64,000 bases of DNA. Origin: Methanobacteriota archaeon (GTDB lineage Archaea; Thermoplasmatota; Poseidoniia; Poseidoniales; Poseidoniaceae). Location: assembly GCA_002722695.1 (NCBI GenBank), contig PBMS01000029.1:5724-69723 (forward strand). The letters run 5' to 3'. The notes beneath the pieces were generated by a model. The model had not been told where the DNA came from and did no database searches. It saw only the letters and a program-made list of their open reading frames with translations. A program made the position numbers and the translations under genes. Of the stretch, positions 30,624 through 57,229 are shown in pieces; the first letter of the stretch is position 1, and every line of letters starts with the position of its first letter.

Positions 30624-31725
30624 TGGGGGACTGGACATTCAGATCCTCGTCGTTTCGCTGCTCTATCCGGTTCCGTTGAACCCAACGCGAGGGGTTTTTG
30701 TTGAAGATCACGTTGATCTCCTGAAAACTCAGGGTCACGACGTCAAGGTCGTGAACCCTTTGCCCCGGATGCCGCGCTACGCAGAAGCGCGACGTTCGAC
30801 CCTGATGGGCGTGGCCAAGGCGCCTCGTCGTTGGACGCACAACGGCACATCGATTCTCGCTCCCCGGTTTTTTGCGCTCCCCGATCACCCCTATCCGCGT
30901 CTTACGGCCTCCAGCGTAACCCGCCGTGCGAGGTGGGTTGAGAAACACCTGGGCTCGTGGAGACCGGATGTCATCGTGTGCCACACCCTCTGGCCCGTTG
31001 CCAATCTTGCGAAGGAACTCGCCCAGCGGTGGAAACGTCCGTGGGTGGGCGTGGTCCACGGCTACGATTTTGATGTGGGGCTGGACCTCGATGGCGTGAG
31101 CGAGCAGGTTCGATCTGCGGCCACGTCCTGCGACGTGTTGGTGTGCGCATCTCAGCGTCTTTCGGACGTGGCACAAGGTTGGTCGAACAAAAGCGCGGAA
31201 ACCATTCCGTGCGTGACCGAGATCGACCGAGACTGGCGTCGTCCGGTTCGTCCAATGAAAAAACCGTGGAAGAAAGAGCCCATTGACGTCCTCTTCCCTG
31301 CCGACCCTCGACGACCTGAAAAACGACACTTGCTCGCCTTGCAAACGGGCGAGGTGCTCGAAGAACGAGGATGGATGGTCGGCATCACCACTCTGCGCCA
31401 CCAGCCGAGGGACATCGTCTACGATCGCATGCTGACCGCAGACGTCACGCTCATCACCTCCCGCAGGGAAGCGGGGCCGTTGGTGGCGCGCGAATCTTTG
31501 CTGTGCGGAACGCCCGTGGTCAGCGTAAACGTGGGAGAAGTGGACCGGTATCTTCCGAAAGAGTGGGTCCACGGAGACGATCCGGAAGCCCTTGCCGATG
31601 GAATCGAAGACGCGCTTCGGAACGGATGGCAAGGCGAAGAAACGGTGGATGAACGGCTTGCATTCGCCTCATTTGATACGGTCAGTCAAGCGTGGACCGA
31701 GCTGCTTTCCAGCCTTGTTTCGTGA
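30583..31725 (+). CDS. Glycosyltransferase family 4 (GT-B, RfaB-like)
   Basis: N-terminal ILVVSLLYPVPLNPTRGVFV and the EX7E-type C-terminal region (TSRREAGPLVARESLLCGTPVV). There is no in-frame ATG, so the start is TTG or similar and uncertain. Confidence 0.6.
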   Translation: MPTTSLKSTLRLADGGLDIQILVVSLLYPVPLNPTRGVFVEDHVDLLKTQGHDVKVVNPLPRMPRYAEARRSTLMGVAKAPRRWTHNGTSILAPRFFALPDHPYPRLTASSVTRRARWVEKHLGSWRPDVIVCHTLWPVANLAKELAQRWKRPWVGVVHGYDFDVGLDLDGVSEQVRSAATSCDVLVCASQRLSDVAQGWSNKSAETIPCVTEIDRDWRRPVRPMKKPWKKEPIDVLFPADPRRPEKRHLLALQTGEVLEERGWMVGITTLRHQPRDIVYDRMLTADVTLITSRREAGPLVARESLLCGTPVVSVNVGEVDRYLPKEWVHGDDPEALADGIEDALRNGWQGEETVDERLAFASFDTVSQAWTELLSSLVS

Positions 31726-33136
31726 ACGCAAACAACGGCAACCCCATGACCCACCACAACGTGTTCGACACCAACCCCCCAACAACGAACAACGTGCACA
31801 CCATCACCAAGGTCCATTCGTCTCTGCGAGCCACAATCGTCGAAAATTCACCGCTCATCCACCACGATAGGCCCAACAACACGGCGGCAGAAAGGCTGCT
31901 TGCGGCCGCGCCGGCGTAGAGCTTCTGTCCCGGATTGCTCGGACCGTTCAGCACCAACACCGCCCCGAGCATGCCAGCAGCGAGAAGCACCAGAGCGATG
32001 AACAACGTGAATCGCCATGGTCGGTCCCCGGCCATCAATGCTGTGTAGGTTGGGGTCGCAAGAAGGGTCAAGCCCCAACCCGCCAAAAGAACGGTGAACA
32101 CGTCGATGGCCGATGCCCCGTATGTCCCGTCCAAATAGTCGGAGGGGAAGGCCATCGGAGCGAACAAGGTCACCACCAAATGGCCACCAAAGAGACCGTA
32201 CGGCAGTAGACCAAAACACATGTCCACTGCGTTGTTCAATTCCCTGCGATGCTTCTGAGGCTTGAATCGCGCATCGCCAAGGACGGGCAGTAGAGCGGAT
32301 CGAACCGCGGCGGGAACGACGAGCCCAGCCAACCAAGCCAGCTGTGCGACATGGAACACAGCACCCAATTCTGCGCCACCCGAGGCTGCGACCATGAATT
32401 TCTCAATCCGAACCACGTAGGGAAGAATGCCCAGCGTGATGGCAAAAGGGAGAGCCGAAGCCAAGAGTTGAGGTGTTGAAACCCAGCTCGGCCCCAACGC
32501 ATCCCAATCAACGGTTGCCTGGGTCGGTGGAGCTGTTCGCACCACCCAAAACAGTGCCAAGCCCCATCCGGCCGTGGCCCCGAACAAGAACGCACATGTG
32601 AATGCAGTGGCGGACGTGGAGCCCTGCCACGCCAGCAAGCTGTAGAGCACGACCGTACATCCGCGTTCCACCACTTTTGTAATGGCTTCCAATCGAGCTT
32701 CCCCCAACACCCGCAGACCCGACCGTGGAGCGTACGACGCAACGTGTGCAAGAGCGATGAGCCCCGCAGCGAGAAGAAGTTCAGACGGTGCCTGAACGTT
32801 CAGCCACGCCTCGGGTCGCAGCAAACCAGCGACGGCGACGAACGGCAGCACCGCCAATGCCTGCAAGCGGTACGTGCGCCACACAGCGGCGGGAACCAAC
32901 GATGGTGCTCGCGTCCCATCGCGTGCCAGCAGGGTGGGCAAACCAAGGTCAACCACGAGAAACAAGGAAGCGTACAAGTCGATGGCCAACACCATCCAAC
33001 CGTAATGCTCTGCCAACAATGCGTGCGTCAGTATGATTTGTCCGATGAAGGCCAGCGCAACTGCGAGCAAATCTGCGCCCACCAACCACGACGCGTCCCG
33101 CCCGGTGGAGGGGGTGCGATGGGTTGGCTCGGTCAT
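31682..33136 (-). CDS. Polysaccharide biosynthesis flippase-like polytopic membrane protein (Wzx/MOP superfamily)
   Basis: ~12 predicted TM helices over 484 aa. Located in the glycan locus. No soluble domain. Confidence 0.45.
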   Translation of the reverse strand: MTEPTHRTPSTGRDASWLVGADLLAVALAFIGQIILTHALLAEHYGWMVLAIDLYASLFLVVDLGLPTLLARDGTRAPSLVPAAVWRTYRLQALAVLPFVAVAGLLRPEAWLNVQAPSELLLAAGLIALAHVASYAPRSGLRVLGEARLEAITKVVERGCTVVLYSLLAWQGSTSATAFTCAFLFGATAGWGLALFWVVRTAPPTQATVDWDALGPSWVSTPQLLASALPFAITLGILPYVVRIEKFMVAASGGAELGAVFHVAQLAWLAGLVVPAAVRSALLPVLGDARFKPQKHRRELNNAVDMCFGLLPYGLFGGHLVVTLFAPMAFPSDYLDGTYGASAIDVFTVLLAGWGLTLLATPTYTALMAGDRPWRFTLFIALVLLAAGMLGAVLVLNGPSNPGQKLYAGAAASSLSAAVLLGLSWWMSGEFSTIVARRDEWTLVMVCTLFVVGGLVSNTLWWVMGLPLFAFTKQGWKAARSTLD

Positions 33137-33481: not shown

Positions 33482-34102
33482 TCAGTCCTCGTCGTCGAAC
33501 TTCAAGTCTCGAGCACGCTGCATGGCGGCGTCATCGGTGAACCAAAACGTCGGCGTGGGCCCGAGGTCTTTGTCCCACCGTTGGACCGCTCGTGCGAACA
33601 TTTCCCCATCGGCGTATTTTTCACACCAGCGAAGGAACCATTCGGCCTGTTCCTGCATCGCCTCGTCGCCCTCGGACTGTCGACGAAGCATTTCAGCTTG
33701 GAGAGCGGTTATCATCATCCAGTTTGGTGTCAAGGCGTAAGTGACGTAGGGGTTTCGTTCCATGTCCACGCTGCGCCATTCCGTCCACAAGGAGAAGACC
33801 TGGTCGTAGAGGTAGCCGATGGTGAGGACACCCAGCATGACGGTCAGGAAAATTGACAGCAAACCAAAGTACGTTGCAGGTACACCGGCGATGGTGTCGT
33901 TGAAGCAAAGAGCGTCCGCGCAAGAGGCTTCGAATCGCCACCGAACGTAGGGCCAAACAAGCAGGGTGATGGTGGTGCCCCACAACAAGAGGCCAACCAC
34001 GGCCTGGGATTGTTGCATGCGCCAATACTGACGCATCACCCACTTTCGGAACAGCGAAGGAGAACCGTCTTCCGTCATAACAGCAACCTTCCCAAGCGAC
34101 AT
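33482..34102 (-). CDS. Hypothetical membrane protein
   Basis: Two or three hydrophobic helices (VVGLLLWGTTITLLVW; FGLLSIFLTVMLGVLTIGYL) and a C-terminal acidic soluble region. Confidence 0.3.
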   Translation of the reverse strand: MSLGKVAVMTEDGSPSLFRKWVMRQYWRMQQSQAVVGLLLWGTTITLLVWPYVRWRFEASCADALCFNDTIAGVPATYFGLLSIFLTVMLGVLTIGYLYDQVFSLWTEWRSVDMERNPYVTYALTPNWMMITALQAEMLRRQSEGDEAMQEQAEWFLRWCEKYADGEMFARAVQRWDKDLGPTPTFWFTDDAAMQRARDLKFDDED

Positions 34103-34154: not shown

Positions 34155-35129
34155 TTACACCCCGTCCTTCAACCACAATCTTCCGGCGAGGCTCTCCCAC
34201 TCAATGGATTGCGGGTGGCATGAATTGTGGTAGTTGGTGAATTCACCAAAGTACCACCTCCCATCGGCCCGGAACAAGTCCACTCGCGTGTAATCGATGT
34301 CTTCGGCCAAGCGTTCGACGATGTTGACAAGTTCGGTCAACCCATCCTTGCCGAGAAGGGACACGATTTCAGCGGGCGTGTTCTCTTCGCTCCATCGAGG
34401 GTTGGTTTGGTGAATGCGCTGCCCGCCGGGCGTGTAGATGGACTGGGAATGATTGGTCATGCGCCCTGTGTCGTATTGGATGAACCCCACCTTTCCGTGG
34501 AACACATGGACCTTCCAGTCGTTGGGCAATCGATTGTTGTCGGTGAGCAACTCTTCGATCATCACGCCGCGAGGCTGAATGTTCGCAGCTCCCCATTCAA
34601 GCGGAGCGGGGAAGTCCTGCCGTAAACACCATCGCAAGGATCGCTCGATCCGCCATTTTGGCCACGGTTTACCGTCTTGGTCCCGCCCGTTGCGAATGAC
34701 GCGGTATCGGTGCGCCCTGCGCGAAAACAAACGAAGTTTTCGAGAAACGTTGGCGAGCGGTACGGGCCCGTTGTCCATGATGAACAGAGCGTCTCCCGAC
34801 CAGTGGTTGGTTTTGATGACACATCGATCGGGCAGATTGTCCCAATCAATGCTCACGTCCTCCGACCAGTGGTGAAGTTCGGTGAGGTGGCAGACGTTTT
34901 TGGATTCGACCAGAGCCCGAGAGCGGTGTTTGTCCTCCATGAGCGGAAGGAGAGGATTGCGGTCTTCCACGCACCGTTTGAGAAGAAGTTGGCTGTAATG
35001 GCCCGCCTTGGATTCGTCGAGAGCGTGCCACGGGTGGACACCGCCTGGAAGTAACTCGGCCATCGATTGCGCGTGCGAGCGCGCCCGTTTTAGGCTTGGC
35101 ACCGTTCGTCCGGCGGACGGACAAATCAA
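34155..35129 (-). CDS. TupA-like ATP-grasp enzyme (PF14305 family; carboxylate-amine ligase associated with teichuronopeptide-type glycans)
   Basis: QLLLKRCVEDRNPLLPLMEDKHRSRALVE ... LPDRCVIKTNHWSGD matches the characteristic TupA-like N-terminal and KxxHGSG segments. The real start may be the internal Met near 35063. Confidence 0.65.
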   Translation of the reverse strand: MICPSAGRTVPSLKRARSHAQSMAELLPGGVHPWHALDESKAGHYSQLLLKRCVEDRNPLLPLMEDKHRSRALVESKNVCHLTELHHWSEDVSIDWDNLPDRCVIKTNHWSGDALFIMDNGPVPLANVSRKLRLFSRRAHRYRVIRNGRDQDGKPWPKWRIERSLRWCLRQDFPAPLEWGAANIQPRGVMIEELLTDNNRLPNDWKVHVFHGKVGFIQYDTGRMTNHSQSIYTPGGQRIHQTNPRWSEENTPAEIVSLLGKDGLTELVNIVERLAEDIDYTRVDLFRADGRWYFGEFTNYHNSCHPQSIEWESLAGRLWLKDGV

Positions 35130-35455
35130 GCTTGACGGCCAGCGTCAAACATTTCTCGAAGACTTCCGTCTTGCAACATCTCAAGCGCGATGTCGGACCC
35201 GCCGATGAGTTCGCCGTGAACGAAGACTTGAGGCATGGTTGGGAAATCCGACCAGGCGCAAATGGAAGGGATGGCTCGGGCATCGGAGAGGACGTTCACC
35301 GAGGCAAATTCCTCGCCGAGGCTCTGCAAGACCTGAGCGGCGCGGTTGGAAAACCCGCACTGAGGCTGATTCGGGCTGCCCTTCATGAACAGCACGATGG
35401 GGTGGTCGTCAACGAGGCTTTGCAATTCTTCTGGGCTCCAATTCATGGTGTTCAC
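35126..35455 (-). CDS. Monothiol glutaredoxin (CGFS type, Grx4/GrxD family)
   Basis: QPQCGFSNRAAQ active-site motif. ~109 aa. Confidence 0.8.
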   Translation of the reverse strand: MNTMNWSPEELQSLVDDHPIVLFMKGSPNQPQCGFSNRAAQVLQSLGEEFASVNVLSDARAIPSICAWSDFPTMPQVFVHGELIGGSDIALEMLQDGSLREMFDAGRQA

Positions 35456-35775
35456 TCCTTGTTTTTCATGATGCGGCGGATGTGGACGCCTTGACCCCCG
35501 CCGTGCGGGTCAAAGGCCGTGTTGCCCGCCGTTTCGGCTTGGGAGGGCGTCATGCACTTGAGATCGAGTGCGTGAATGGGATGGGGGATGTGCTGGCCCA
35601 TGACGGCGAGCACCTGCTTTTGGCGCTGAAGAGGGCGGACGCCCTCGAAGGTCTCGGAGATGATGCGCACGTGGAAGTGGTCGCCAGACCCGTGAAGATC
35701 GATGACCTCGACGGTGGCTTCGGGCACGGCCTTCAACACCTCTGCCTCAATCCACGCCGCTTCAACCATGTGCAC
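35452..35775 (-). CDS. BolA-family protein
   Basis: ~107 aa. The HFHVRIISETFEGVRPLQRQKQV pattern is typical of BolA. Overlaps the Grx start by 4 nt, so the two are translationally coupled. Confidence 0.65.
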   Translation of the reverse strand: MHMVEAAWIEAEVLKAVPEATVEVIDLHGSGDHFHVRIISETFEGVRPLQRQKQVLAVMGQHIPHPIHALDLKCMTPSQAETAGNTAFDPHGGGQGVHIRRIMKNKE

Positions 35776-35831
35776 GCCTCATGAGTTCCTGTGTGAGCAC
35801 CTTCTTTGAACCTGCGCCCGAATCTCTTGCG

Positions 35832-37079
35832 CTATTCGGACGCCAATCGTTCCAAAATAGCGTCAACTGCGGTGGCCTTCTTGACACGTATCCATGGATT
35901 CACGGTCCGTGTTTCAATGTCCATTTTGAGCCGTTCAACACCTCCGCCGCTGATGTTGAGAAGAATGCAGTCGTCCTTGTCCACCTCACCGGATTCCACC
36001 GCTTGGAGAATACTTGCTGCTGCCACCGCTCCGGGCGTCATGATGTCGATGCCCTCGATGGTTTCGATCATGGTGCGCGCCTCCATGGCAGATTCACGCT
36101 CAACGATGTGGGTTTGGCCGTTCGAGGCTTTGAGAATGTCGTGCACAGCACCAGCTTGGCCGTACGCAGGGCCTTTGTTGAGCAGATAGTCGGAGTACAC
36201 CTTGACCTCTTCAGCGGGATAATCTCCGGGAACGAGGTGGTCGCGCCCCGCTTGCCAGGCGCTGTGTATGGGATGATGTTCGACGTTTTGTGAGACGTGT
36301 TGGCGAGGAGCGGGTCCTTCGAACAAACCGGCTTCGATCAACCGCTCAGCCATCTCGTGAATGCCGATGGGGCCCGGGCCGCCACCGATGCCTTGGAAGT
36401 AATGGTCGGGCAAACGCCCAATCGTGAAGGCTGCATCGATCATCAAGGTCCCAATGCCGTCTCGGCGAGCAACGTTGTGGACGCTGCCTTCCATCTGCCA
36501 GCCTGGAAGTTGAGCAGCGATGCTCTTGGCGACGGTCTTTGCGTCGTAATAGTCACCGTCCTCAATCACGACAAGGCGAACGCTTTCTGCGTTGTTTTCT
36601 GGGCGAGCCCAGATGCGTTTGGCGTGGTCCCTGCCCACCACGACGATGAGTGGGGTGCCGTCCAGCCCACAGAAGTGCGTGAAGGCTCGGGCGGTGTTGC
36701 CAGCGCTCGCGCAAATCAGCCCCTTGCAGCCGTGATCGTGCATGCGTTGGATGGTCGGAACGGCCTCCATGTCCTTGAAACTCCCTGTTGGACAAAGACC
36801 ACCTTTCTCAGGCCAATACCCATGGTAGGTGACCCAGAGGTTGCTCAAGCCCATCGCTTCACCGAGGGCCTCGGCCCGGTAGGTCACCGTACCGGCAACG
36901 TACTCGTTGGCCTTCGAGGTAGGAATCCATGAGAGGTACTTCCACACGCCTTTTGCGCTGTCTTGAAGCTGAAACGGTTCGCTGTAGACCGCACGCAGCA
37001 ACGCGTTGTCCGTGTAGTGGAGCGTGTAGGCGTCGTCGATGAGATCGCCTGTCTTCAGGCATTTGAGTTGATACTTCAT
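35832..37079 (-). CDS. Threonine synthase-like PLP enzyme (ThrC / cysteate synthase family)
   Basis: N-terminal MKYQLKCLKTGD. PLP-lysine motif TGSFKD. ASAGNTARAF. Start set at the internal Met with a good match to ThrC N-termini. Confidence 0.6.
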   Translation of the reverse strand: MKYQLKCLKTGDLIDDAYTLHYTDNALLRAVYSEPFQLQDSAKGVWKYLSWIPTSKANEYVAGTVTYRAEALGEAMGLSNLWVTYHGYWPEKGGLCPTGSFKDMEAVPTIQRMHDHGCKGLICASAGNTARAFTHFCGLDGTPLIVVVGRDHAKRIWARPENNAESVRLVVIEDGDYYDAKTVAKSIAAQLPGWQMEGSVHNVARRDGIGTLMIDAAFTIGRLPDHYFQGIGGGPGPIGIHEMAERLIEAGLFEGPAPRQHVSQNVEHHPIHSAWQAGRDHLVPGDYPAEEVKVYSDYLLNKGPAYGQAGAVHDILKASNGQTHIVERESAMEARTMIETIEGIDIMTPGAVAAASILQAVESGEVDKDDCILLNISGGGVERLKMDIETRTVNPWIRVKKATAVDAILERLASE

Positions 37080-37171: not shown

Positions 37172-38479
37172 TCACGACAGGGGGCGGCCAACAGCGAAAC
37201 ACTGCCAACCCAACTTTTGCAACCCGTCCAAGTCCAACACACGACGACCGTCATAGACTCGAGGTGCGTTCATCTGTTGGCCGAGCGCTTCCCAATCAAG
37301 GTCAACACACGCTTTGTGTGCTGTCACCAATACAGCGAGATCGTGATTTTTTGCCATGGTAAGGTCCTCGACCACCTCGATCGAGGCAGGAAAAGTTTCA
37401 GGATCAATATGAGGGTCGTAAACGCTGACGGCGATGCCACGTTGGTGCAAGGCTTCAGCCAACGGTTCAGCCGGTGTTTCCCGAGGGTCGCCCACTTCGG
37501 CTTTGTACGACCAACCAAGGAAGAGCACCTTCGTAGATTCCGCCGACAGCCCAGCCTTCCACAGGATGTCGACCAGGACCTGCGCGACATGGTTGGGCAT
37601 GGAGCGGTTGACCGCCCGAGCAGCGGTGATGAGCCCTGCAGGCACACCAACGTCGCTGGCTCGCTGAATCATGTAGTACGGGTCAACGGGAATGCAGTGG
37701 CCGCCCACCCCGACGCCAGGCGTGTAGCGATGGAAGTTCCACTTTGTTGCAGCAGCAGACAACACGTCCTCGACGTCCACGTCCATGGCGGGGAAAATAC
37801 GAGCCAGTTCATTGACGAGCGCGATGTTGATGTCGCGTTGCACGTTCTCAATGACCTTCGCTGCCTCAGCAACTTCAAGTTTTCCAACGTAGCGAACGTC
37901 CTCGCTCGTGAGTTGGCTGTAAAGTTGCACAAGGGCGTCGCCCACTTCAGGGTTGGAACAACCGACGACGCGAGCCACTGAACGCACGCCGTGGGCGGCG
38001 TCGCCGGGGTTGAATCGTTCGGGACAATACGCGATTTCAACATCGACGCCGATCTCTAGACCCAAATCCTCAATGAGAGGCAACCAAGTCTGAGCCGTTA
38101 CGCCGGGGTAGACCGTGGATTCGAGCACAACGATGGTGTTGGAACCTCGGGGTATTGACTCAAACACCGCTTTACCGGCCGCCTTGACATACGATAAATC
38201 AGGCTTGAGGTCGTGTGTTATGGGTGTTGGAACAGTCACAAGCACGATGTCGCATTGTGGAACGGCTTCCGCTGTGGAGGTGGTGATGTGCCAGCGTTCG
38301 CTGGCCGGCTGTGGGACGATGTCGTCGACATCAGGATCGCCCGTCGGGTTCTTTCCCGCTTTGACCGTGTCAACGGTGCGCTGCGAGACGTCAACGCCCC
38401 ACACGGTGAACCCGGCATCGTGAAACCCAATGGCCGTAGGCAAACCGACGTATCCAAGTCCGATGACGCCGATGGTCAT
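37172..38479 (-). CDS. Nucleotide-sugar 6-dehydrogenase (UDP-glucose/UDP-ManNAc dehydrogenase family)
   Basis: N-terminal Rossmann IGVIGLGYVGLPTA. Family-typical central and C-terminal domains. Confidence 0.8.
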   Translation of the reverse strand: MTIGVIGLGYVGLPTAIGFHDAGFTVWGVDVSQRTVDTVKAGKNPTGDPDVDDIVPQPASERWHITTSTAEAVPQCDIVLVTVPTPITHDLKPDLSYVKAAGKAVFESIPRGSNTIVVLESTVYPGVTAQTWLPLIEDLGLEIGVDVEIAYCPERFNPGDAAHGVRSVARVVGCSNPEVGDALVQLYSQLTSEDVRYVGKLEVAEAAKVIENVQRDINIALVNELARIFPAMDVDVEDVLSAAATKWNFHRYTPGVGVGGHCIPVDPYYMIQRASDVGVPAGLITAARAVNRSMPNHVAQVLVDILWKAGLSAESTKVLFLGWSYKAEVGDPRETPAEPLAEALHQRGIAVSVYDPHIDPETFPASIEVVEDLTMAKNHDLAVLVTAHKACVDLDWEALGQQMNAPRVYDGRRVLDLDGLQKLGWQCFAVGRPLS

Positions 38480-38653
38480 GTCGGCGTTTGAGTCCAGCGA
38501 AGCAAAGCGCTGACTCCATCCCATGTGCTATCCGAATCGGTTCATGTTATCAACTCAACCTATCAATGGACGGTGGAATATGCAAAACACCGAACGAATC
38601 CCCTCTCCGTTGAGGAACGGTCCGGTTTAGTCATATAGGAACGAAACGAGGCT

Positions 38654-39514
38654 ATGTCGATGGGGCAGAATGGTCCAACCACCCCCGTGCTCCGCCAAAT
38701 TGGGGTAAAATCAAATCCACTTCTTGCGCCCATAAACACGCTGAAAGAAGTCCGTTCGAATCGATTCCTGGTGCGGAATCTCATTCGACGTGATGTGCGA
38801 GGTCGCTATCGAAACGCTGCTCTCGGATACGCTTGGACGGTGATTGAACCTGCCTTGCTGGCCTCTGTTTACTGGTTTCTGTTCATCATGCTCAGTGGGA
38901 ATCCTGACGAAATGTACGCCGTTTGGGTGCTGTTGGGAGTGATTGTTTGGGGCTCTTTTTCAAAATCCTTGAACGCCGCAACGAATTCCCTGACCGGCAA
39001 TGTACGTACGATGCATCTTGTTTTCTTCCCGAGATCGATATTCCCCGTTTCTGGTGTTGGTGCTAACATCGTCGTCACAATGATGAGTTGTTTGATCATC
39101 CTCCCTCTTCTCTACATCTACGAATTACCAATCACAATCCACCTGGTCTGGATCCCCATCGGCGTGTTGTTGGCCGGGTTTATGGCGCTCGGTTTTGGCA
39201 TGATGATGGCGCCTCTGAATTGTGTTCAAAGGGATGTCCAGCATCTGATTCGTTTCATCACGCGTGCTGGCTTTTTCGTGTCCCCTGTGATGTGGACAGC
39301 AGAAATGGCAATGGAGCGCGGGGCTTGGGGCGAAGCTGCCCTATGGAACCCGATGGTACTACCAATCACGATGGTTCGTCATGCCCTCGAAGGGAAGAGC
39401 GTTGAATTACCGGATTCGATTGTAATTTCAAGTCTCGTGGTTTCGTTTCTGATCTACGTCGTCGGGACGATGATTTTCTCAAAATACGAGCGTGGGGCGG
39501 TGAAGTATCTATGA
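38654..39514 (+). CDS. ABC-2 type polysaccharide/teichoic-acid exporter permease (Wzm/TagG-like)
   Basis: Six predicted TM helices. The N-terminal RFLVRNLIRRDVRGRYRNAALGYAWTVIEP matches the ABC-2 signature. Confidence 0.7.
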   Translation: MSMGQNGPTTPVLRQIGVKSNPLLAPINTLKEVRSNRFLVRNLIRRDVRGRYRNAALGYAWTVIEPALLASVYWFLFIMLSGNPDEMYAVWVLLGVIVWGSFSKSLNAATNSLTGNVRTMHLVFFPRSIFPVSGVGANIVVTMMSCLIILPLLYIYELPITIHLVWIPIGVLLAGFMALGFGMMMAPLNCVQRDVQHLIRFITRAGFFVSPVMWTAEMAMERGAWGEAALWNPMVLPITMVRHALEGKSVELPDSIVISSLVVSFLIYVVGTMIFSKYERGAVKYL

Positions 39515-40230
39515 CAGAAACGAGCATCAGCCTTCAGGACATCGTCCTTCATTTCCCAAAGCAGCGGAATATTTTCGGGATTATCTCGGACTTTTTCCGT
39601 AAAAAAATACGGCGGTTCACTGCACTAAGCGGTGTAAATTTGCACATTAAGCAGGGCGAAGTGGTTGGAATAATCGGACGAAACGGTTCCGGAAAATCCA
39701 CACTCCTTAGAGTGATATCGGGTATTTACCCTCCTGACGAAGGCATGGTTCATGCTGCGGGAGACATCTCCTTGCTTGCAGGTCTAGGAACAGGGTTCTC
39801 TCCGCATCAAACGGGACGAGAAAACGCTTTGCTGTACGGCTCAATACTCGGCCACAGTGAAGAAGAAATGTTGTCCAAGCTGGATGAAATTATTGAATTT
39901 AGTGAACTGGGTTCGTTTATTGATGAGCCGCTGAGAACGTACTCAGCAGGAATGAAAGCCCGTTTGGGCCTGGCCGTCGCTTCTGCGATTAAACCGAACA
40001 TCCTTCTCATCGACGAGGTCTTGGGTGTGGGAGATCCAAATTTTCGAGAGAAATCCAAAAATAAAATTCTCGCAATGGTGAAGGGAGCCAGTACCGTTGT
40101 TATCGTATCCCACAGCTTTGGTTTGATGACCGACGTGTGCGATCGCGTCGTCCTTTTGGACCGAGGAAAAATCATTGCTGAGGGTGACCCGCAAACATCG
40201 ATCAAAGCGTATTACGATTTGGAGGAATGA
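39511..40230 (+). CDS. ABC transporter ATP-binding protein (Wzt/TagH-like)
   Basis: Walker A GRNGSGKST, ABC signature YSAGMKARL and Walker B ILLIDE. Confidence 0.8.
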   Translation: MTETSISLQDIVLHFPKQRNIFGIISDFFRKKIRRFTALSGVNLHIKQGEVVGIIGRNGSGKSTLLRVISGIYPPDEGMVHAAGDISLLAGLGTGFSPHQTGRENALLYGSILGHSEEEMLSKLDEIIEFSELGSFIDEPLRTYSAGMKARLGLAVASAIKPNILLIDEVLGVGDPNFREKSKNKILAMVKGASTVVIVSHSFGLMTDVCDRVVLLDRGKIIAEGDPQTSIKAYYDLEE

Positions 40231-41420
40231 ACGCAATGCCAACGCCGCGTAATGCAATGACGGCGAGAGAACGTCAACTGAGCGATGAACTAAACAGAAT
40301 CCGGTCAACATACTCTTTCAACCTCGGACTTCTGTTGACCGAGGCTCTCTTCAGAAAACCTTGGAAAATTCCTCTGCTCCCACTGTCGTTCGTCTTGTTC
40401 AACATCCGATACATCAAGCAAGGAAGAGTAAAAAAACTGCACATCGAAGAAAACTCAATCGAACTTGATGAAAACGTATTGATGCTCATCTCCACAACTG
40501 AAGAGGGCACGGCATCATTGGAACGGTGTGCGATTCTTGCAACAGAGTGGCTGAATGAACCTGAACGTAAGGTCGTGATCGTCAGTCCTCACGAAGACTA
40601 CCCGGGATTCTTACCGAAAAAAGCGGTGATGTATCCCATAAAAGATCCAAAGCTCTTGCACAAACAAAAACGGTCAGAGTGGAACGCATTGTGCGAGAAT
40701 CTGATCTCAAATATTCTTGAGTCGCATCGCCCGCAGCACGCAATTTTTGATGGGCCTTACCCCTATCGAGGAGTCTTAAACTCAATCAAGTCATTTCCGT
40801 CGGCCACATGGGTTTGGTTTCGACCCGAGGGGATCGACAACAGCACCCTCTTGACGCAATCCGAACATTTTACAAAAACGGAACGTTTCTCCATCTCAGA
40901 CAGACCCGGTGTGGCAATGCACGAATCGAGGAGATTACCTGTCAAAAAAGAATGGAAACGAATCTTACTCGACGCCCGAACGTATGGATCACACACGATG
41001 AAGCACGATGTGAAAATGCACAACATCTACAACGAGTTGGGGAACGACATCACTGTCGTTCACCCCTACGATGCAAATGCAATGGGTGGAGAAATCACAT
41101 CGGTGCTTTCTGAACAATCTCTTGAACACTTGATGGGGGCCGTCGTTCCTGCAAATCTAGAGATTGTTGCTGCCATGATGGCCGCAAATCTACCAACCCT
41201 GTGCATCCACACCGACGATACAAATCCCGCCACTTTAGCTGACCTGCGAAAGGGCTCGGCCCGTTGTCCGGTGATGTTTTGTCATGAACGGGACACGGTT
41301 CAGATTTTGCATTGTTTGACGACGCTGGTGAGAGACAACAACGCTATGAGAGAATGTTCCAACAGCGTGAAAAAAAGAAATTGGGTTTCTCAAATCATTC
41401 CGTCGCTTCATAAAGATTGA
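40227..41420 (+). CDS. GT-B-fold glycosyl/glycerophospho-transferase-like protein, paralog of 45208..46557
   Basis: It shares the N-terminal R..S..F.LG.LLT.A..RPW.I..LP motif with the 45208..46557 protein. Overall family is unclear. Confidence 0.35.
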   Translation: MNAMPTPRNAMTARERQLSDELNRIRSTYSFNLGLLLTEALFRKPWKIPLLPLSFVLFNIRYIKQGRVKKLHIEENSIELDENVLMLISTTEEGTASLERCAILATEWLNEPERKVVIVSPHEDYPGFLPKKAVMYPIKDPKLLHKQKRSEWNALCENLISNILESHRPQHAIFDGPYPYRGVLNSIKSFPSATWVWFRPEGIDNSTLLTQSEHFTKTERFSISDRPGVAMHESRRLPVKKEWKRILLDARTYGSHTMKHDVKMHNIYNELGNDITVVHPYDANAMGGEITSVLSEQSLEHLMGAVVPANLEIVAAMMAANLPTLCIHTDDTNPATLADLRKGSARCPVMFCHERDTVQILHCLTTLVRDNNAMRECSNSVKKRNWVSQIIPSLHKD

Positions 41421-44400
41421 CCGATGAAAGCAAACCGACGTCCCTTTCTGTCATCGGCAGTGCGAAATTGGAAAGTCGGTTTTTTGTGAAGGCCCTGTAC
41501 TTCTCCGGAATCATCTCAAGAGAAACGGGCAGGTAATGCTCAAGGAAGGTCCAATCCCTGTCAAGGTGGCGGTTTAAGTGTGGAAATTCATCAACCACCT
41601 TCAGTCCATCTTTTGATACCCCTCCATGTTTAATTGAATAGAGCGTACTTGCTGCTTGTTTCAATGGCTCTTTTTGCAAGAAGGTGGTTATTTCATTGCT
41701 CATTGCAAACGGCAACCCTTGCAAAGTGTTTTTTCTGAAACATTTCCAACAGGTTCCGCAAACCTGACCGGGACGGGAGGAACGAAGGCACGACTGTGCC
41801 CATCCGTCCCACCCCGAAGCCGTAACAATGTTGAGATTGACCACTTCCGAACAACCTGCAACCGGCTGGTACAGCGAAAGTCCGACGGCGTCAAACATTG
41901 GCGCATAGTGCTTCCAAAACCAAGATTGTTGGAAATCGCGATATTTGTACCCGTGAAAAAGGTATGAGTTTTCCAGCGGCATCCCTGTGCCTATGCTGTC
42001 CAATCCAAAATAATCAGCAAGGAGAATGGCCTGCACAGCGCATGCATAATCTGTTGAGAATCCTGCAGACTTTCCTTGATGTCGCCTTAATTCTTCATGG
42101 TTTGAAGGGATGCAATGAACGATTCTGCCAGTATCTGTTCTGATTTTATCAAAGAATCGAAAAGCGTTGGTGTGATCCAGCTGACCTGAAATGCCGGTTC
42201 GTTCATTGTAGAGCAGCACCGTATCCTCCGGCATAAGTGCCATAGCGGCAGCAGAATCTATCCCGCCAGAAAATGCCAGTCCAGGCCTCCATCCTGGTTC
42301 TCGTGTTGGGTTCCAATGTTCCATTGCTGACTTGTCCCAAGGCTCAACAAGAAGATGGTGGGCGAGTTGAAACAAGTCAGGGTGTGTATCATCAATGGAC
42401 CAGTCCATTGGCATTTGGAAGTACACTTCATGTTCTTTCCATTTCAAAACAAGCAAGTCTCCAGCGGTGGACCAGTGATCACCAACGATGTATCGATCTT
42501 GATCTCCTTTCGTGCCCGAACCACGACCGTCAAGATACTTCGCAAGCTCCTGTTGAGTCGATTTGCTCGTCCGAGTTAAATCGGGCAATTCATGTGACGG
42601 CATGAGTTCGGTTGACCATTTGCTTTCGTCTCGAAAACGAGCGCTGAGTTTGATTGCCTCGCTGTTGTTTTGGGAGGCCATCTGAACAACAACATAGTAT
42701 CCTATTTTCCCAGAGGATATCTTGGATTGAAGAGTCCCATCCAACTCAAATTCATTCCTGAGTTTCAGATGAACGTTTGAGGCAACTCGAGAGGAACCAT
42801 AGGGGCCAAGCACAAGGGACTTGATGGGACCGTTGAGCACAAGACGGCTGAGTTGGAGGGTTGAATCGCAAGCCAATGCATCCAATTCCCAACGTAGCAT
42901 GGGTGGAAATACGTCGTTTGAGATTCCTAATCGCCCAAACACATGGTCCAAACGCACGGAGTAATCCGTTGGATTTTCTCGCAGAACCGTTGCGAAACGC
43001 CGTGCGTCGGTTTCATCCACTATGATATCGACGCGTTCATCGAGTCCCGAGCGCCGGATCGATCGATTGACGCAATAAATCGTGTTGTTGTCTTGTTGAT
43101 CCTTGTTGACCGTGGACGTGTTGCTCTTGTGCTGCCTGTAGAGATACAGTGGTGTTTGCAGATGATACCCAGCGGTAATTTCAGACAGTTTCAGAAAAAA
43201 GTCATAATCCACAGCGTTGGTTATTGACTCGTCAAAGCCGCCTGAACGATTGAAATCACGCCTTCTAAACATTCGAGGATGATGAATCATCATGCCCTTC
43301 ATGAGGCGCTTTCGGCTGTATATCGCCCACGAATATGCCGGCCCCATCGAAGCTCCATGCTCATCAATAAGAAAAGAATCTCCGTACACAAATCCAACAT
43401 TCGAATTGTTCTGCAGAAACACCGAGAGCAATTTGTCTGCTGCCGATGGAAGAAGGACATCATCGCCGTCAAGCTGCAGTATGAACTCACCACGACCAGC
43501 ACGAATCGCTGCGTTTGATGCACTGGAGATTCCTTTGTTCTCCTGATGCAGGATGATGACTCGTTCGTTCCCTGAATACAATCGGTCGATCAACTCGCCC
43601 GTACCATCTGTCGATCCATCGTTGCATACAATTACTTCAAGGTCCGTCATGGTTTGGTTCAGAGCACTATCGACCGCCTCCTGAATAAAGTCCACACAGT
43701 TGTAAGCTGGGATGTATACGGTTAATCGAGGGACTTCATAGACTCGTCCTGGTTCAAATTTTCTGTACATTGCGGGACATTTTTCGACGAGTTGGTTTCG
43801 TGTGATCTCCTTCCCTGACTCACGGTCTGTCTCGTTTGATCCACCCGGTGGCTCTTGATGGAGGGCTTCAGCCCCCTCGACAGGTATGAACCACGCCCCG
43901 TGCCGATAAAGTCGATAGCCGTATTCCTGGTCCTCTGCTCCCCATGCAGTGAAGGTTTCGTCAAATCCACCGACGGATTCATGCAACTGGCGATCGATGC
44001 AAAGATTGCCACCACAGAGCCATCGAAACGCGTATTGAGCACTCTTTGCTTGCTCGGTTTCATGGTAGAATTTGTATCTCCAGTCTTCGCTCGGAGCTTC
44101 ATCGCCCACGGGTCCGCGTCCGGTGTCAACGCGTTGAGTGGGTAAATCGAGGACAGTTTCAATGTTCTCCAGAACGTCTTGAATCGAAAGGTCGTCGGTG
44201 TTTACATATCTTCGGCCGCCGATCAATACTGCCTTTTTTGACACATGCATGTACTTCATGAACGATTCAACCAGAGTTGGTTCGGGCAACATGTCGCAGT
44301 CAAGGATAATAATGCAGTCGTTGCTTGCTTCACGTACGCCCAAATTTCTGATTTCGCTCAATCGATAACCTAAATCTTCCTGAAAAACATGTTTGATGGG

Positions 44401-44685
44401 AAAAAAGTCCTTGAAAAGAGGAATGAGCGACTCCGGTGAATCGGATGAGCCGTCGTCCGCTATAACAATCTCAATCAGAGAAAGTGGATAACTGGAATGG
44501 GTGAGTGCTGCAATTGTCTTTCCCAGCTTCTCACGACGGTTGTAAACCGGTATAACAACCGAAACCGGTAGTGTGTATTCTGGCCTGCTTCGTGCAGGAA
44601 AGCGCAATTTGACCGCTCGTTGGAACAGAGTCCAATCATTTCCCTGCCCGAGGAGAGGAGGAAGTAATTCGTCGAATTCAAGCAT
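41395..44685 (-). CDS. Multidomain fusion of two tandem GT2 (GT-A) glycosyltransferase domains and a C-terminal PP-loop ATP pyrophosphatase domain (QueC/N-acetyl-sugar amidotransferase-like)
   Basis: GT2 #1 is VSVVIPVYNRREKL...DDGSSD...ILDCD. GT2 #2 is LTVYIPAYNCVDFI...NDGSTDGT...LDGDD. The C-terminal domain carries LAFSGGIDSAAA (SGGxDS) and a QueC-like zinc motif C-x9-CGTCWKC. Confidence 0.6.
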   Translation of the reverse strand: MLEFDELLPPLLGQGNDWTLFQRAVKLRFPARSRPEYTLPVSVVIPVYNRREKLGKTIAALTHSSYPLSLIEIVIADDGSSDSPESLIPLFKDFFPIKHVFQEDLGYRLSEIRNLGVREASNDCIIILDCDMLPEPTLVESFMKYMHVSKKAVLIGGRRYVNTDDLSIQDVLENIETVLDLPTQRVDTGRGPVGDEAPSEDWRYKFYHETEQAKSAQYAFRWLCGGNLCIDRQLHESVGGFDETFTAWGAEDQEYGYRLYRHGAWFIPVEGAEALHQEPPGGSNETDRESGKEITRNQLVEKCPAMYRKFEPGRVYEVPRLTVYIPAYNCVDFIQEAVDSALNQTMTDLEVIVCNDGSTDGTGELIDRLYSGNERVIILHQENKGISSASNAAIRAGRGEFILQLDGDDVLLPSAADKLLSVFLQNNSNVGFVYGDSFLIDEHGASMGPAYSWAIYSRKRLMKGMMIHHPRMFRRRDFNRSGGFDESITNAVDYDFFLKLSEITAGYHLQTPLYLYRQHKSNTSTVNKDQQDNNTIYCVNRSIRRSGLDERVDIIVDETDARRFATVLRENPTDYSVRLDHVFGRLGISNDVFPPMLRWELDALACDSTLQLSRLVLNGPIKSLVLGPYGSSRVASNVHLKLRNEFELDGTLQSKISSGKIGYYVVVQMASQNNSEAIKLSARFRDESKWSTELMPSHELPDLTRTSKSTQQELAKYLDGRGSGTKGDQDRYIVGDHWSTAGDLLVLKWKEHEVYFQMPMDWSIDDTHPDLFQLAHHLLVEPWDKSAMEHWNPTREPGWRPGLAFSGGIDSAAAMALMPEDTVLLYNERTGISGQLDHTNAFRFFDKIRTDTGRIVHCIPSNHEELRRHQGKSAGFSTDYACAVQAILLADYFGLDSIGTGMPLENSYLFHGYKYRDFQQSWFWKHYAPMFDAVGLSLYQPVAGCSEVVNLNIVTASGWDGWAQSCLRSSRPGQVCGTCWKCFRKNTLQGLPFAMSNEITTFLQKEPLKQAASTLYSIKHGGVSKDGLKVVDEFPHLNRHLDRDWTFLEHYLPVSLEMIPEKYRAFTKNRLSNFALPMTERDVGLLSSVNLYEATE

Positions 44686-45223
44686 GGTGGGGGGCTCCTA
44701 AATGCACGTCCAGCGCCGCAAATTTCCTTGGTTCCCCGTTGGATTTGAATTGCTCGCTGATGAAGATTTGAGCCTCGCAATTAAAATGTGCTTCCAAATC
44801 AATCATCAGGGAATGCTCAGCTTCCCGGTCGACATCGTCAACAAGGATGTGTTGTAACTTTGGTAAACGGGTGAGATGATTTAGTATTCCGCTGCGACCG
44901 ATTGAACCCGGCGGACCGTCGATGATGAGTAGGTGTGCTTCCATGGGGAGTTCATCAAAACACGATTCATCGTACCATCCCTCTTCTTTTCGGCTGATGG
45001 ACACAGAATTCGTCACGATCGGGGCAAAGACATAGGTCGACTTGGATTTGTGAAGCCAATCCTCGTTGTGTTCAACGGAATAGAGTTCAAATCGTTCGCT
45101 CAAACGCACGCTGCCGTCTCCACTACCGAATTCAATCACCACTGCTCCTGAGGGTATGCGTTCCTCAATCCATAAAAACGCCTCATTAGGAAGCATCCAT
45201 CCTGCGTTCATGTGTCCACCCAT
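44678..45223 (-). CDS. Putative class I SAM-dependent methyltransferase-like protein
   Basis: VIEFGSGDGS is a glycine-rich motif I-like segment and LLIIDG a motif II/IV-like segment. Weak. Confidence 0.3.
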   Translation of the reverse strand: MGGHMNAGWMLPNEAFLWIEERIPSGAVVIEFGSGDGSVRLSERFELYSVEHNEDWLHKSKSTYVFAPIVTNSVSISRKEEGWYDESCFDELPMEAHLLIIDGPPGSIGRSGILNHLTRLPKLQHILVDDVDREAEHSLMIDLEAHFNCEAQIFISEQFKSNGEPRKFAALDVHLGAPHHA

Positions 45224-46557
45224 TCTGAAAGCACCACCTGCAGAATGCTGGCACCGTTTTCCTGTTCAGAAACTGGGTTGCGTGGCCTTGACAGCAATTC
45301 AGCGACAGCGGTTTCTATTGCGGATTTGGTGCGCTCTCTAACCACCAACCCCCATCCTTCCGCTTCCGCTTGGCGACATCGAGCAAGCTGGTCGTCCATT
45401 CCAGTCGCCATGTTAGGGTAAAACACGGTAGGAATACCGAACTTCCTCATTTCGTGGTACGAGTTGTACCCTCCAGCTTGTACGCTGGCATCAAAGGCAT
45501 TGAAGTACACCGAATTAGGGTAATCTCGAAGCAAGACAACCCGATCAAGGTTCACAGAAAGACGTTCCCCCAGCATGCTTTCACCCAGCACCACGCTGAC
45601 ATTCTCATGAGCGAGAAGGGCGTCGATGGTAAGTCGCACCTCAGAACCAATTTCGTTGATTTGGCCAGCACCCAACTGAACGTACACGACTCTCTCTTCC
45701 AGCCCAAGTCCGAGGCGTTTTCTTGCATCGTTTCGTTGAATCAATTCTCCATGGTCAAGAAGCACCATTGGCGGAACTGATATTGTCTTTACACTGTGTC
45801 CAATTTCTGTTGGTTTCAGAGGAACACTGTCCTCGGGTCGCACGATTAGATCGAAGTGCTCAATTGAGTCTACGGGTATATTGCTCCCTTTCTTGAACAT
45901 CCCTCGTCGAAGCCACACTTTCTTGAGGGAGCGCTGCCCATTGAGCGCGTTTAACATACCACGATATGGAAAGGCTCCATCGTAAACAAACATCGTTGGG
46001 CGATGCTGGGTAAAAACGAGTGAAAGTTGCTCTTCCACCATCGCATTCCATTCGGATGTGGTCATGTTCTTGTGTTTTTTTCTACCCGCAAGGTGGTAGG
46101 TCGGAAATCCATCGTTGTACAACAGATGCAAGGTCGGCATTGTTGTAAAGAACACCACCTCAGATGATGGAAATCGCTTTTTCCACCTCTTGGCAAGAGC
46201 GTACATTCGAGTAAAATGGCCAAACCCGACGCCGTTTGTTGGAAACAGGACAATCGAATCCTTTCGAGGTTGATGCGCTTCTTCATGTTCCCCATCACCG
46301 TAGGGGATTGGGCGTTTACCAATTCGCTCCATGCCGATGCAAAACACAAGATAGGGAACCGTGAATGGAAGGAAAATAATCCTCCAAGGTCTCTGAACAG
46401 CGTTTGTCAGAAGAACACCCAGTCTGAATGGAGCAGAATTCCGAAGTCGCCTGTTCTCACGTTGGTAAAATCCATCCCGCTGAGTTGGCGTGTGAGATTC
46501 GTGTTCGTGGGCTTGATGATCTCCATCCATCACGTCATCAGAGTCGTAATCAATCAT
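45208..46557 (-). CDS. GT-B-fold glycosyltransferase-like protein (MurG/UGT-like G-x-G-H-x-x-R N-terminal motif)
   Basis: FPTNGVGFGHFTRMYALAKRW. The C-terminal YFNAFDASVQAGGYNSYHEMRKFGIPTVFYP resembles the GT28/GT1 C-domain. Confidence 0.45.
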   Translation of the reverse strand: MIDYDSDDVMDGDHQAHEHESHTPTQRDGFYQRENRRLRNSAPFRLGVLLTNAVQRPWRIIFLPFTVPYLVFCIGMERIGKRPIPYGDGEHEEAHQPRKDSIVLFPTNGVGFGHFTRMYALAKRWKKRFPSSEVVFFTTMPTLHLLYNDGFPTYHLAGRKKHKNMTTSEWNAMVEEQLSLVFTQHRPTMFVYDGAFPYRGMLNALNGQRSLKKVWLRRGMFKKGSNIPVDSIEHFDLIVRPEDSVPLKPTEIGHSVKTISVPPMVLLDHGELIQRNDARKRLGLGLEERVVYVQLGAGQINEIGSEVRLTIDALLAHENVSVVLGESMLGERLSVNLDRVVLLRDYPNSVYFNAFDASVQAGGYNSYHEMRKFGIPTVFYPNMATGMDDQLARCRQAEAEGWGLVVRERTKSAIETAVAELLSRPRNPVSEQENGASILQVVLSEWVDT

Positions 46558-49500: not shown

Positions 49501-49850
49501 AATTCTTCATCGGTGGATGTCCAAGTGATTCGGGAGGCAGCGCGCATCACGATTGAGCAATCGCCGCTTATGCATCCTGCGTGTATCAGACGTCGAAGAT
49601 ATTCTGGCTTTGGGTTAGAGGCGATGGCTCGTTGCATGAGGACGACGGCTTCTCCATGGCGAGCTGTGTTCATGAACAACCTCGAAAGGACATCTAACGC
49701 CCACAAATCGTTCGCATTATCACTGAGCATTGCCTCGAGGAAAGGCTCTGCCTCGTCGTAATTTTTGCTGTTGTAGTGGCGTCGTGCCTCGTCCTTGTTT
49801 GAGGTGGTGTTTTTCTTGAACGGCCACCTCATGAACAAATGGTCCTGCAT
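46554..49850 (-). CDS. Fusion of an N-terminal TPR-repeat region, a central GT2 glycosyltransferase and a C-terminal TupA-like ATP-grasp domain
   Basis: TPR-like helical repeats over ~550 aa. GT2 is LVSIIMTTYKRDPLL...VDDCSPD...MDSDD. The C-terminal KLAGRSFVEDLGLKVPVLYW...NFVIKPEKGWNSNNVYCM...FGEFTPTPHGG matches the TupA-like ATP-grasp. Confidence 0.6.
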   Translation of the reverse strand: MQDHLFMRWPFKKNTTSNKDEARRHYNSKNYDEAEPFLEAMLSDNANDLWALDVLSRLFMNTARHGEAVVLMQRAIASNPKPEYLRRLIHAGCISGDCSIVMRAASRITWTSTDEELLSRMFETFWHEQSCRAFFLQSNWDMDIPFPIFVQAKEHFESGDVEGGIELLNSLMSREVVNESTLMFARQVCESLGQIEMAHNLWVNYLGKIDGELSKKRSLAKRLKHAKRFDESAQIASVVLQEDPNDLQMLEILTEIGYRTKTPQLALDAYHRLNELGEVKLYHLRRFANAAINHGSVQDILLASKRLVELGVDAKATIRNSYLKLCELGQKEEAEHLLGLIEGTLLETDLMAARMLEEGDAASALDILDGALASHSESISFLMRKGIALESMGKLEDAIRMFERVLEINKNHQSALQRRLKCGIKIWSEEKYSFEITKATKEFPNNLNHQFARLNFVLSVLKDFDLALEIVQTCLNHHPNNQRSQLYFALVNSWLGNHQTARNTISKCLVRWPESNDVYITASQIEKNAGQAQMQIKHINNMLELHGLAPVTSTSPVNAITPRYLSTDVSKFVDDDRLVSIIMTTYKRDPLLDSAIASILNQTYRNVELLIVDDCSPDDNFTYLQTLKQTDDRIRVFQMNENGGTYLAKNFGISQANGTFIGFMDSDDYCHAQRIEMQVDSLSSNPEAVGITHDYFRIDENSDVEFRGIGALRMACISLLIRREVVDEIGYFDSLRVGADTEYIERIEAYYGNERRLRMSVPSMFMMLHNSSLTGGGPFHISWRSVSGHRLNHHCSFRLWHKKIKSGIASPYLPRRLSIRPFEVPDAMKSKHHVWETGMPLFSEMIRKRNHDWWKAKKPVWQKKLSPKLAGRSFVEDLGLKVPVLYWEGKECQDIPELAQLPRNFVIKPEKGWNSNNVYCMKDGMDILTHQAYTREHLVRALSEDEFIRQNQPIIMIEELLEPEPKQLSDGLPRDFKFYCFGEEIAMVHVALRKSEVNKSLNEHQYYDENFKLMPGKIMEKRDQGQDPIQRPDCWQEMIESVRTIGAALGMYMRIDMFATSRGAVFGEFTPTPHGGNGYTEYADKYLGSFWNGEEGVQ

Positions 49851-50053
49851 TGGGGTTATGGAGATGTTGTATTAATTTCAATCTGAAGGTCGTTTCCAAA
49901 GCCATCAGACCGGTCCCGAATCTTCTGCAATGATATGCGGAATTATGAACACGAACCCCTGTATATCTGCGGATTTCGATAGCACCATGCAATGGGTAGG
50001 AACTCTGGCATGGACAAGCGAAAAATGATGAACAGGTTGCGATTACGGATAGC

Positions 50054-56942: not shown

Positions 56943-56947
56943 GACGC

Positions 56948-57229
56948 TCAACCCTTGACCCATTCTGTGACGTGCTTCTGTGCAACCTCGGCTGCGAGGA
57001 TTTTGTCTTCGGTCCGAACCATGAGCTTCCCGCTCGGATACAACGTCATGTCGCAGGCGCCTGAGAACGTCCAGCAAAGGCGCGAACGGACACCGACTTC
57101 GTAACCCGCCGCCTCGATGGCGCCACCGACCGCTTCGAGGTCAATGGATTCCACTTGATCGGGCACGATTTGATAGGAGCCTTGCGTACCGCACAGTTCC
57201 ATTGCAAATCCGTCGGACATGATCAGCAC
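56948..57229 (-). CDS. Small conserved-looking hypothetical protein (93 aa)
   Basis: An ORF with coding-like composition, co-directional and adjacent to the Sua5 gene. No recognisable motif. Confidence 0.3.
   Translation of the reverse strand: MLIMSDGFAMELCGTQGSYQIVPDQVESIDLEAVGGAIEAAGYEVGVRSRLCWTFSGACDMTLYPSGKLMVRTEDKILAAEVAQKHVTEWVKG

Follow-up and report, generated by a model that had tools for sequence, protein, structure and literature searches.

This study concerns a window of 64,000 nucleotides (positions 5,724 to 69,723 of contig PBMS01000029.1, assembly GCA_002722695.1) from an archaeon of Marine Group II, family Poseidoniaceae (MGIIa), whose source genome comprises 1.63 Mb in 50 contigs and is 70.7% complete. 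The gene in question lies on the minus strand at 35832-37079 and encodes a pyridoxal phosphate (PLP) enzyme of 415 amino acids, with the first in-frame ATG at 37079. Our analysis revealed that this gene very probably belongs to the cysteate synthase (CS) family, as far as can be judged from its sequence. On the sequence evidence, roles as threonine synthase (ThrC) and in coenzyme M synthesis are excluded; the gene is accessory in distribution, and it holds a conserved position at the edge of a glycan island. The best single reading of these results, which we put forward tentatively, is that cysteate is made in order to decorate a uronic-acid glycan. Throughout the text, labels beginning with G denote genomes, those with L loci or contigs, those with g genera and those with P proteins.

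Family assignment of the PLP enzyme

The PLP enzyme matched the CS model TIGR03844 (EC 2.5.1.76) over its full length (model positions 1-398 of 398) with 410.8 bits, well above the cut-off of 324.9, whereas every ThrC model remained far under its own cut-off (91.5 bits for the best threonine synthase model, whose cut-off is 303, and 38.5 bits for TIGR00260, whose cut-off is 167.1). Its best match among solved structures was 9k3c/9k3o, deposited as 'Cysteate synthase' (253 bits, residues 3-393), and threonine synthase structures matched at 49 bits or less. A tree was built from 47 sequences, namely 42 CS-like sequences and five ThrCs of the sister family (a quick IQ-TREE run with SH-aLRT support and without bootstrap). 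The CS-like sequences were separated from the ThrCs by a long branch with 100% SH-aLRT support. Within them, the MGIIa sequences and three sequences from Rhodothermales/Bacteroidetes metagenome-assembled genomes (MAGs; 50-52% identity) formed a clade (branch length 0.68, 100% SH-aLRT), which nests in a poorly resolved radiation of CSs from methanogens, Nitrospirota and Bacteroidota.

The residues of the enzyme tell the same story. Across 22 other CSs, 92 alignment columns are at least 90% conserved, and the PLP enzyme is identical at 70 of them, among which are the residues that set CS apart from ThrC (E105, R131, E197, R206-D207, Y227, Q229, R246 and the insertion P304-D314). The PLP lysine K102 is also kept. 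Thirteen non-conservative changes were found at conserved CS columns, among them the change of the glycine-rich loop from GSGTG to GGGPG. Because these changes are common to the Rhodothermales sister group, they characterise the whole clade and do not reflect decay of the window gene. Additionally, two natural fusions of CS homologues (P0156 and P0181), with a PAPS reductase domain (670 amino acids) and a SerA-like 2-hydroxyacid dehydrogenase (756 amino acids), link the family to sulfite and to phosphoserine.

The initial annotation had named both cysteate synthase and housekeeping ThrC as possible identities for this gene. The TIGR03844 match, the 9k3c structure, the placement inside the CS clade and the retained signature residues all favour the former. 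Public annotation pipelines have already given the name cysteate synthase to MGII proteins, and no paper discussing CS in MGII was found in the literature searched (cysteate or sulfonates in MGII).

Gene neighbourhood and distribution in MGIIa

Of 121 genomes from the order, 28 have the CS gene above the cut-off, and each of the 28 belongs to the window's own family. There it is an accessory gene that roughly half of the related genomes possess, while several relatives have pseudogenes or remnants of it. The gene is interrupted by an internal TAG with a frame change in one genome (G022:C20:23-1260) and split into two frames in another (G044:C1:226617-227805), and C-terminal remnants of 36-51 residues stand beside the BolA and glutaredoxin (Grx) genes in two others (G006:C21:42664-42771 and G026:C75:17204-17356). 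Absence of the gene can be real: in G008 the BolA-Grx pair directly follows the dehydrogenase gene that otherwise precedes the CS gene, and the G050 locus is likewise without CS.

The survey of genomic context began with 20 species representatives and was extended to 67 distinct MGIIa loci. In every locus surveyed, from six genera in total, the CS gene stands at the edge of the variable glycan island. A conserved flank lies beside it, consisting of a STAND-like ATPase, thioredoxin, rpe, a family 4 glycosyltransferase (GT4), a 484-amino-acid membrane protein, BolA and Grx. No gene accompanies CS more constantly than the dehydrogenase gene, which was located immediately upstream and co-directional at a distance of 10-313 bp in 24 of the 67 loci, many of the remaining loci being too short to score. 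The CS gene follows it by 10-120 bp in most scorable loci, by 9-11 bp in three g2 genomes and by ~20 bp in several metagenome contigs. In six more loci the dehydrogenase gene is 2.7-3.1 kb away, with an MBOAT gene and a GDSL-like gene in between. The intervening genes, the second of which is only weakly GDSL-like, make up an O-acetylation pair of the alginate type (L039:10621-13195, L048:1370-3944 and L041:7125-9691). Two of the MGIIa locus contigs, L087 (PBZM01000023.1) and L094 (NZEQ01000060.1), sit in MAGs assigned to Gammaproteobacteria/Verrucomicrobiales, most likely through binning errors.

In the CS tree the window's genus (g1) is polyphyletic, and the group that contains the window has a different genus as its sister, a topology that suggests that genera have exchanged the island edge. 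Polyphyly of g1, together with the repeated occurrence of pseudogenes and remnants, is what would be expected of a variable surface-decoration gene. We consider it possible, short of probable, that the CS gene is functionally part of the hypervariable surface-glycan island.

In the window itself, all genes named in the initial annotation were recovered by family-model matches, co-directional on the minus strand, in a run that spans 38524-33482. The first is an NDP-sugar 6-dehydrogenase (37172-38524; TIGR03026, 386 bits; three UDPG_MGDP_dh Pfam domains), whose predicted product is a nucleotide uronic acid. The CS gene follows after 92 nt and, 56 nt further on, a BolA-like protein (35452-35775; PF01722, 52.5 bits). 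The BolA stop codon TGA at 35452 overlaps a GTG of the next frame (35126-35455), which encodes a Grx4-type monothiol glutaredoxin (TIGR00365, 118.3 bits with the cut-off at 117.1; CGFS in the translation); its first ATG, 5 nt on at 35446, is preceded by AAGGAG and is the likely start. The Grx stop in turn overlaps the first possible TTG start of a stand-alone TupA-like ATP-grasp protein (34155-35129; PF14305, 77.3 bits), a candidate amide ligase. The run ends with u206 (33482-34102), a lineage-specific protein of 206 amino acids with hydrophobic stretches, for which searches of Pfam and NCBIfam gave no match and whose neighbours in the ESM Atlas are all hypothetical proteins of Thermoplasmatota. 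Beyond it, on the same strand, lies the 484-amino-acid multi-pass membrane protein of the conserved flank (31682-33136), which has no Pfam match, is flippase-like by position and adjoins BolA-Grx in nearly all related loci.

On the other side of the dehydrogenase, the permease and ATPase of an ABC transporter belonging to the glycan island are encoded on the plus strand (38654-40230; Walker A motif GRNGSGKST in the translation), and homologues of this transporter border the dehydrogenase in relatives. The low-GC island starts at these genes, with a drop from 0.58 to 0.46-0.51 at 38654 (the GC content of the island, 38000-51000, is 0.46-0.51, and that of the flanks is 0.57-0.60). The genes of the minus-strand run, the dehydrogenase and CS genes among them, have a flank-like GC content (0.57-0.58). 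Further into the island, on the minus strand, are an enzyme with two family 2 glycosyltransferase (GT2) domains and a C-terminal QueC-like (DUF6395-related) domain (41395-44685), which is a candidate modifying enzyme, and a TPR-GT2-TupA fusion (46554-49850; PF14305), which is a second candidate ligase of the island.

For the BolA-Grx pair, a different picture emerged. Its CGFS Grx had been described as patchy in archaea, which holds in the genomes sampled (25 of 27 Poseidoniales and 2 of ~123 other Thermoplasmatota genomes). A functional tie of the pair to the glycan genes is unsupported, because the rpe-BolA-Grx backbone exists without the island in the sister family. The order there is STAND-like ATPase, thioredoxin, rpe, BolA and Grx, kept even where there is no island, and beyond Grx follow either homologues of the window genes at 55357-61172 directly or a small island. 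Since the sister family keeps the pair without the island, the island has grown on both sides of an older BolA-Grx pair. Furthermore, the orientation of BolA-Grx relative to the CS gene flips between genera. BolA and Grx4 are order-wide backbone genes that lie near the glycan genes by position only.

Possible fates of cysteate

In the explanation we favour, the dehydrogenase next to the CS gene would supply a nucleotide uronic acid, and this sugar would be built into a polymer exported by the ABC transporter. The CS would make cysteate in this non-methanogenic archaeon, and an island enzyme that forms amides at the expense of ATP would attach cysteate, or a sulfonate derived from it, to this polymer. 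By analogy with Cj1438 of Campylobacter jejuni, the likeliest enzyme for this coupling would be a TupA-like ATP-grasp protein. Taken in full, the proposal that MGIIa decorate an exported uronic-acid polysaccharide with cysteate, amide-linked by a TupA-like ATP-grasp or a related island enzyme, is speculative, and we hold it with more doubt than belief.

The initial annotation had already connected the PLP enzyme with the TupA-like ligase, and the connection survives in part, in that the two genes lie side by side, or with only BolA-Grx between them, in three gene arrangements. The window-type order CS-BolA-Grx-TupA-u206 is common to six close relatives (L061, L065-L068 and L075); in three other close relatives, the opposite strand carries a TupA-like gene of another kind, with 45% identity. 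In the metagenome contig L200 the order is DegT-TupA-CS-u206, all co-directional, with the start of u206 overlapping the CS stop. In G124, which belongs to another genus, and in the identical contig L195, the order GT2-TupA-CS-DUF6395 was found inside an island operon; here the CS gene begins 40 bp after the TPR-GT2 and TupA genes and ends 83 bp before DUF6395, which is followed by an epimerase and an ABC transporter. The GT2 and TupA genes of this operon are 42-44% identical to the corresponding parts of the window fusion (46554-49850), and the C-terminal domain of the window enzyme at 41395-44685 is 34% identical to the G124 gene downstream of CS (PF19932, 153.8 bits). The small gene u206 travels with the ligase and the CS gene. 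In L200 (1949-4918), the CS, u206 and cyclophilin-domain genes overlap stop-to-start and look translationally coupled.

QueC-like genes are present where the CS-side island is fully assembled (the window, G003, G052, G056, G044 and G124); in G080, neither a TupA-like nor a QueC-like gene was detected. In one genus, a GAD/CSAD-like decarboxylase gene stands back-to-back with a QueC-like/DUF6395 gene (G127:C62:4601-7333, G121:C27:7662-10387 and G140:C21:3709-6437). This arrangement hints that, in that one genus, the amine product of the decarboxylase may feed the adjoining QueC-like/DUF6395 enzyme.

Several observations weigh against decoration of a glycan with cysteate or against the ligase as its partner. 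A TupA-like gene lies within 0.8 kb of the CS gene in only 13 of the 67 distinct loci. In a sample of 61 genomes, 13 of the 18 CS-positive genomes lack PF14305, 7 of the 18 lack both a TupA-like and a QueC-like gene, and neither kind of gene is enriched in CS-positive compared with CS-negative genomes. Conversely, the stand-alone ligase was found without a CS gene in G050 and G092. This whole-genome test of co-occurrence is a weak one: the islands differ in GC content, break assemblies and are often left unbinned in MAGs, and many CS genes are no more than 1-2 kb from the end of their contig. Moreover, all loci come from one archaeal family, so their conserved position may be inherited and not functional. 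The nearest outside relatives, in Rhodothermales, have CS beside amino-acid permease or ABC genes and not beside glycan genes, and no cysteate-bearing polysaccharide was found in the literature searched. Finally, and as the main difficulty, the enzymes searched for yielded no source of sulfite, either in the genome of the window or in four near-complete genomes that carry CS. With these points counted, the TupA-like protein is a plausible coupling enzyme for cysteate, though rather an uncertain one.

The supply of the two substrates deserves separate consideration. A supply of phosphoserine is plausible because all five genomes examined have a short SerA-like dehydrogenase. For sulfite, searches of five genomes for ATP sulfurylase, sulfite reductase, TauD, cysteine dioxygenase and Xsc found none of them. 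Within the family, PAPS/APS reductase occurs only in the genera g3, g23 and g24 and was not found in g1, g2, g4 and g7, which hold most CS genes. Either sulfite comes from some other route, or the clade uses another nucleophile. That no sulfite source was found is a concrete puzzle in the sulfur metabolism of MGII. The possibility that the enzyme replaces cysteine synthase was rejected, as CysK-like genes show no pattern complementary to that of CS.

Outside MGII, CS genes have other partners. In Nitrospirota the gene is paired with a ComDE-like thiamine diphosphate enzyme, and in a Spirochaetia genome a CS homologue adjoins a class I/II aminotransferase. In a sediment euryarchaeote (L085:6245-9006), CS, PAPS reductase and a pyruvoyl enzyme resembling phosphatidylserine decarboxylase stand in a row, which may be a cassette leading from sulfite to taurine. 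These contexts support CS chemistry, but they also indicate that different lineages put cysteate to different uses.

Among the other explanations, the one that stands up best, although we think it unlikely, accepts a true CS and assigns its product to a soluble, non-glycan role, such as a trap for toxic sulfite, a sulfonate for excretion, an osmolyte, or the precursor of taurine, with the position at the island edge being an accident of an integration hot spot. No ligase is near most CS loci, the sister-clade genes of Rhodothermales adjoin an amino-acid permease, and the GC content of the CS gene is core-like and unlike that of the island, all of which would suit such a role, as would the generic TauE/SafE-type anion permeases present in all five genomes and the GAD/CSAD-like decarboxylase of the window's genome. 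However, that decarboxylase belongs to the core gene set (54 of 61 genomes) and shows no covariation with CS, the dehydrogenase gaps are tight in g2 and several metagenome contigs (about 10-22 bp), the CS gene is embedded in glycan operons in G124 and L200, and a sulfite source is missing for this role too. Formation of taurine by the decarboxylase (contig C46), whose best model is diaminobutyrate decarboxylase at a score far below the cut-off, was rejected on its core distribution and lack of covariation.

It is less likely still that the MGIIa/Rhodothermales clade has shifted in specificity, so that phosphoserine undergoes beta-replacement with another nucleophile or another beta-substituted alanine is formed. 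The sulfite source that was not found, the long branch of the clade and the 13 non-conservative changes with their altered glycine-rich loop point in this direction. Against them stand the 70 retained columns and the CS-specific charged residues, a score well over the equivalog cut-off, and the CysK-like genes with no complementary pattern. A further point against such a shift is that Rhodothermales include makers of sulfonolipids.

Conversion of cysteate to a capnine-like sulfonolipid by an acyltransferase of the BioF/Kbl family, as in Bacteroidota, appears very improbable. The bacterial pathway has been described and needs a cysteate acyltransferase (PMC11211663). The closest outside relatives of the MGIIa enzyme are from Rhodothermales/Bacteroidetes MAGs, the aminotransferase beside the Spirochaetia homologue is of the same kind, and the window's genome has a PLP acyltransferase of this family (TIGR01825, 476 bits). 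Yet this acyltransferase reaches none of the cut-offs of the Kbl, BioF and serine palmitoyltransferase models. It belongs to the core, with one copy in 59 of 61 genomes whether or not CS is there, and never lies near the CS gene. Its presence therefore speaks neither for nor against the route, which was set aside for lack of covariation. Coenzyme M synthesis was rejected. Its pathway employs CS, an aminotransferase and ComDE (PMC12713407; PMC4153887). ComE (TIGR03846) had no match in the five genomes, four of which are 92-97% complete, and a tblastn search of the window's own genome with ComDE was likewise negative; as ComE was not found, this route is excluded.

That the gene is a divergent form of the organism's own ThrC, the fallback offered in the initial annotation, has next to nothing left in its favour beyond being the sole gene of the ThrC superfamily in the genome, given the ThrC model scores far below cut-off, the long branch separating it from the sister-family ThrCs, the homoserine kinase gene thrB above the cut-off in 0 of 61 Poseidoniaceae genomes, and the loss, breakage or reduction to a remnant of the gene in about half of the related genomes, which likewise have no other ThrC. 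As far as sequence can show, this fallback is refuted. There is no second, canonical thrC in the genome; the sister family has ordinary ThrC-like genes, and Poseidoniaceae without the CS gene have no ThrC-like gene. The Poseidoniaceae genomes searched yielded neither a threonine synthase nor a homoserine kinase, so MGIIa may be auxotrophic for threonine.

Two uses of CS are known, namely coenzyme M synthesis in methanogens and sulfonolipid synthesis in Bacteroidota, and this abundant archaeon of the surface ocean shows neither. The link of its CS with the genes for the variable cell coat of MGIIa is one of position. If decoration of a glycan with cysteate is true, it would constitute a third biological fate for the CS product and a new type of glycan modification. 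It would also be a sulfonate decoration new to archaeal surfaces, and as such would bear on recognition by viruses and grazers and on the strain diversity of MGII. MGII would also join the marine producers of organosulfonates and might contribute bound sulfonate to the organic matter of the sea. In addition, two easy misreadings are corrected by this analysis, one taking the CS gene for a housekeeping thrC and the other taking BolA-Grx for a part of the glycan system.

Comparison with known systems

The PLP enzyme shares its superfamily and PLP fold (PF00291) with ThrC (TIGR00260), but it falls into a separate clade, scores 38.5 bits against the cut-off of 167.1, and comes from a family in which no homoserine kinase was found. 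The BolA-Grx pair resembles the BolA-Grx4 pair for Fe-S trafficking of bacteria and eukaryotes in its BolA domain, its CGFS Grx and the tight coupling of the genes; nothing about it is unusual here, and it is Poseidoniales-wide and nearly absent elsewhere in the phylum as sampled.

A closer relative is MA3297 of Methanosarcina acetivorans, which Graham et al. in 2009, as cited in PMC12713407, reportedly identified as the cysteate synthase of a coenzyme M pathway. The window enzyme is ~42% identical to this Methanosarcina orthologue, is of equal length, matches the same model (TIGR03844) and has the same PLP lysine and signature residues. In contrast to the methanogen, no ComDE, no methanogenesis and no sulfite supply were found here, and the neighbours are glycan genes, where in Methanosarcina they are comDE or MA3299. 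With the CS of sulfonolipid synthesis in Bacteroidota (capnine/sulfobacin), represented by the structure 9k3c/9k3o, the enzyme shares the family and the presumed reaction, but here the host is an archaeon, the CS gene has no acyltransferase that varies together with it, and the context is one of glycan and not of lipid.

A parallel for the proposed pathway is the HS:2 glucuronamide decoration locus of C. jejuni, which contains the Cj1441 dehydrogenase, the Cj1436 and Cj1437 PLP enzymes, Cj1438 and the Cj1435 phosphatase (PMC11800397). There, a PLP enzyme makes ethanolamine phosphate from L-serine phosphate, Cj1438 (GT2 and TupA-like ATP-grasp) amidates in-chain glucuronate with serinol phosphate or ethanolamine phosphate, and an ABC transporter exports the polymer (PMC11800397). 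The putative MGIIa system differs in that its PLP enzyme has another fold type and catalyses another reaction, and in that most CS loci are without the ligase, the TupA-like gene being no constant partner of CS. The two systems are alike in combining, within one locus, a sugar dehydrogenase, a PLP enzyme acting at the level of phosphoserine, GT2 with a TupA-like ATP-grasp, and an ABC transporter, and the amine substrates of the C. jejuni system are anionic, as cysteate is.

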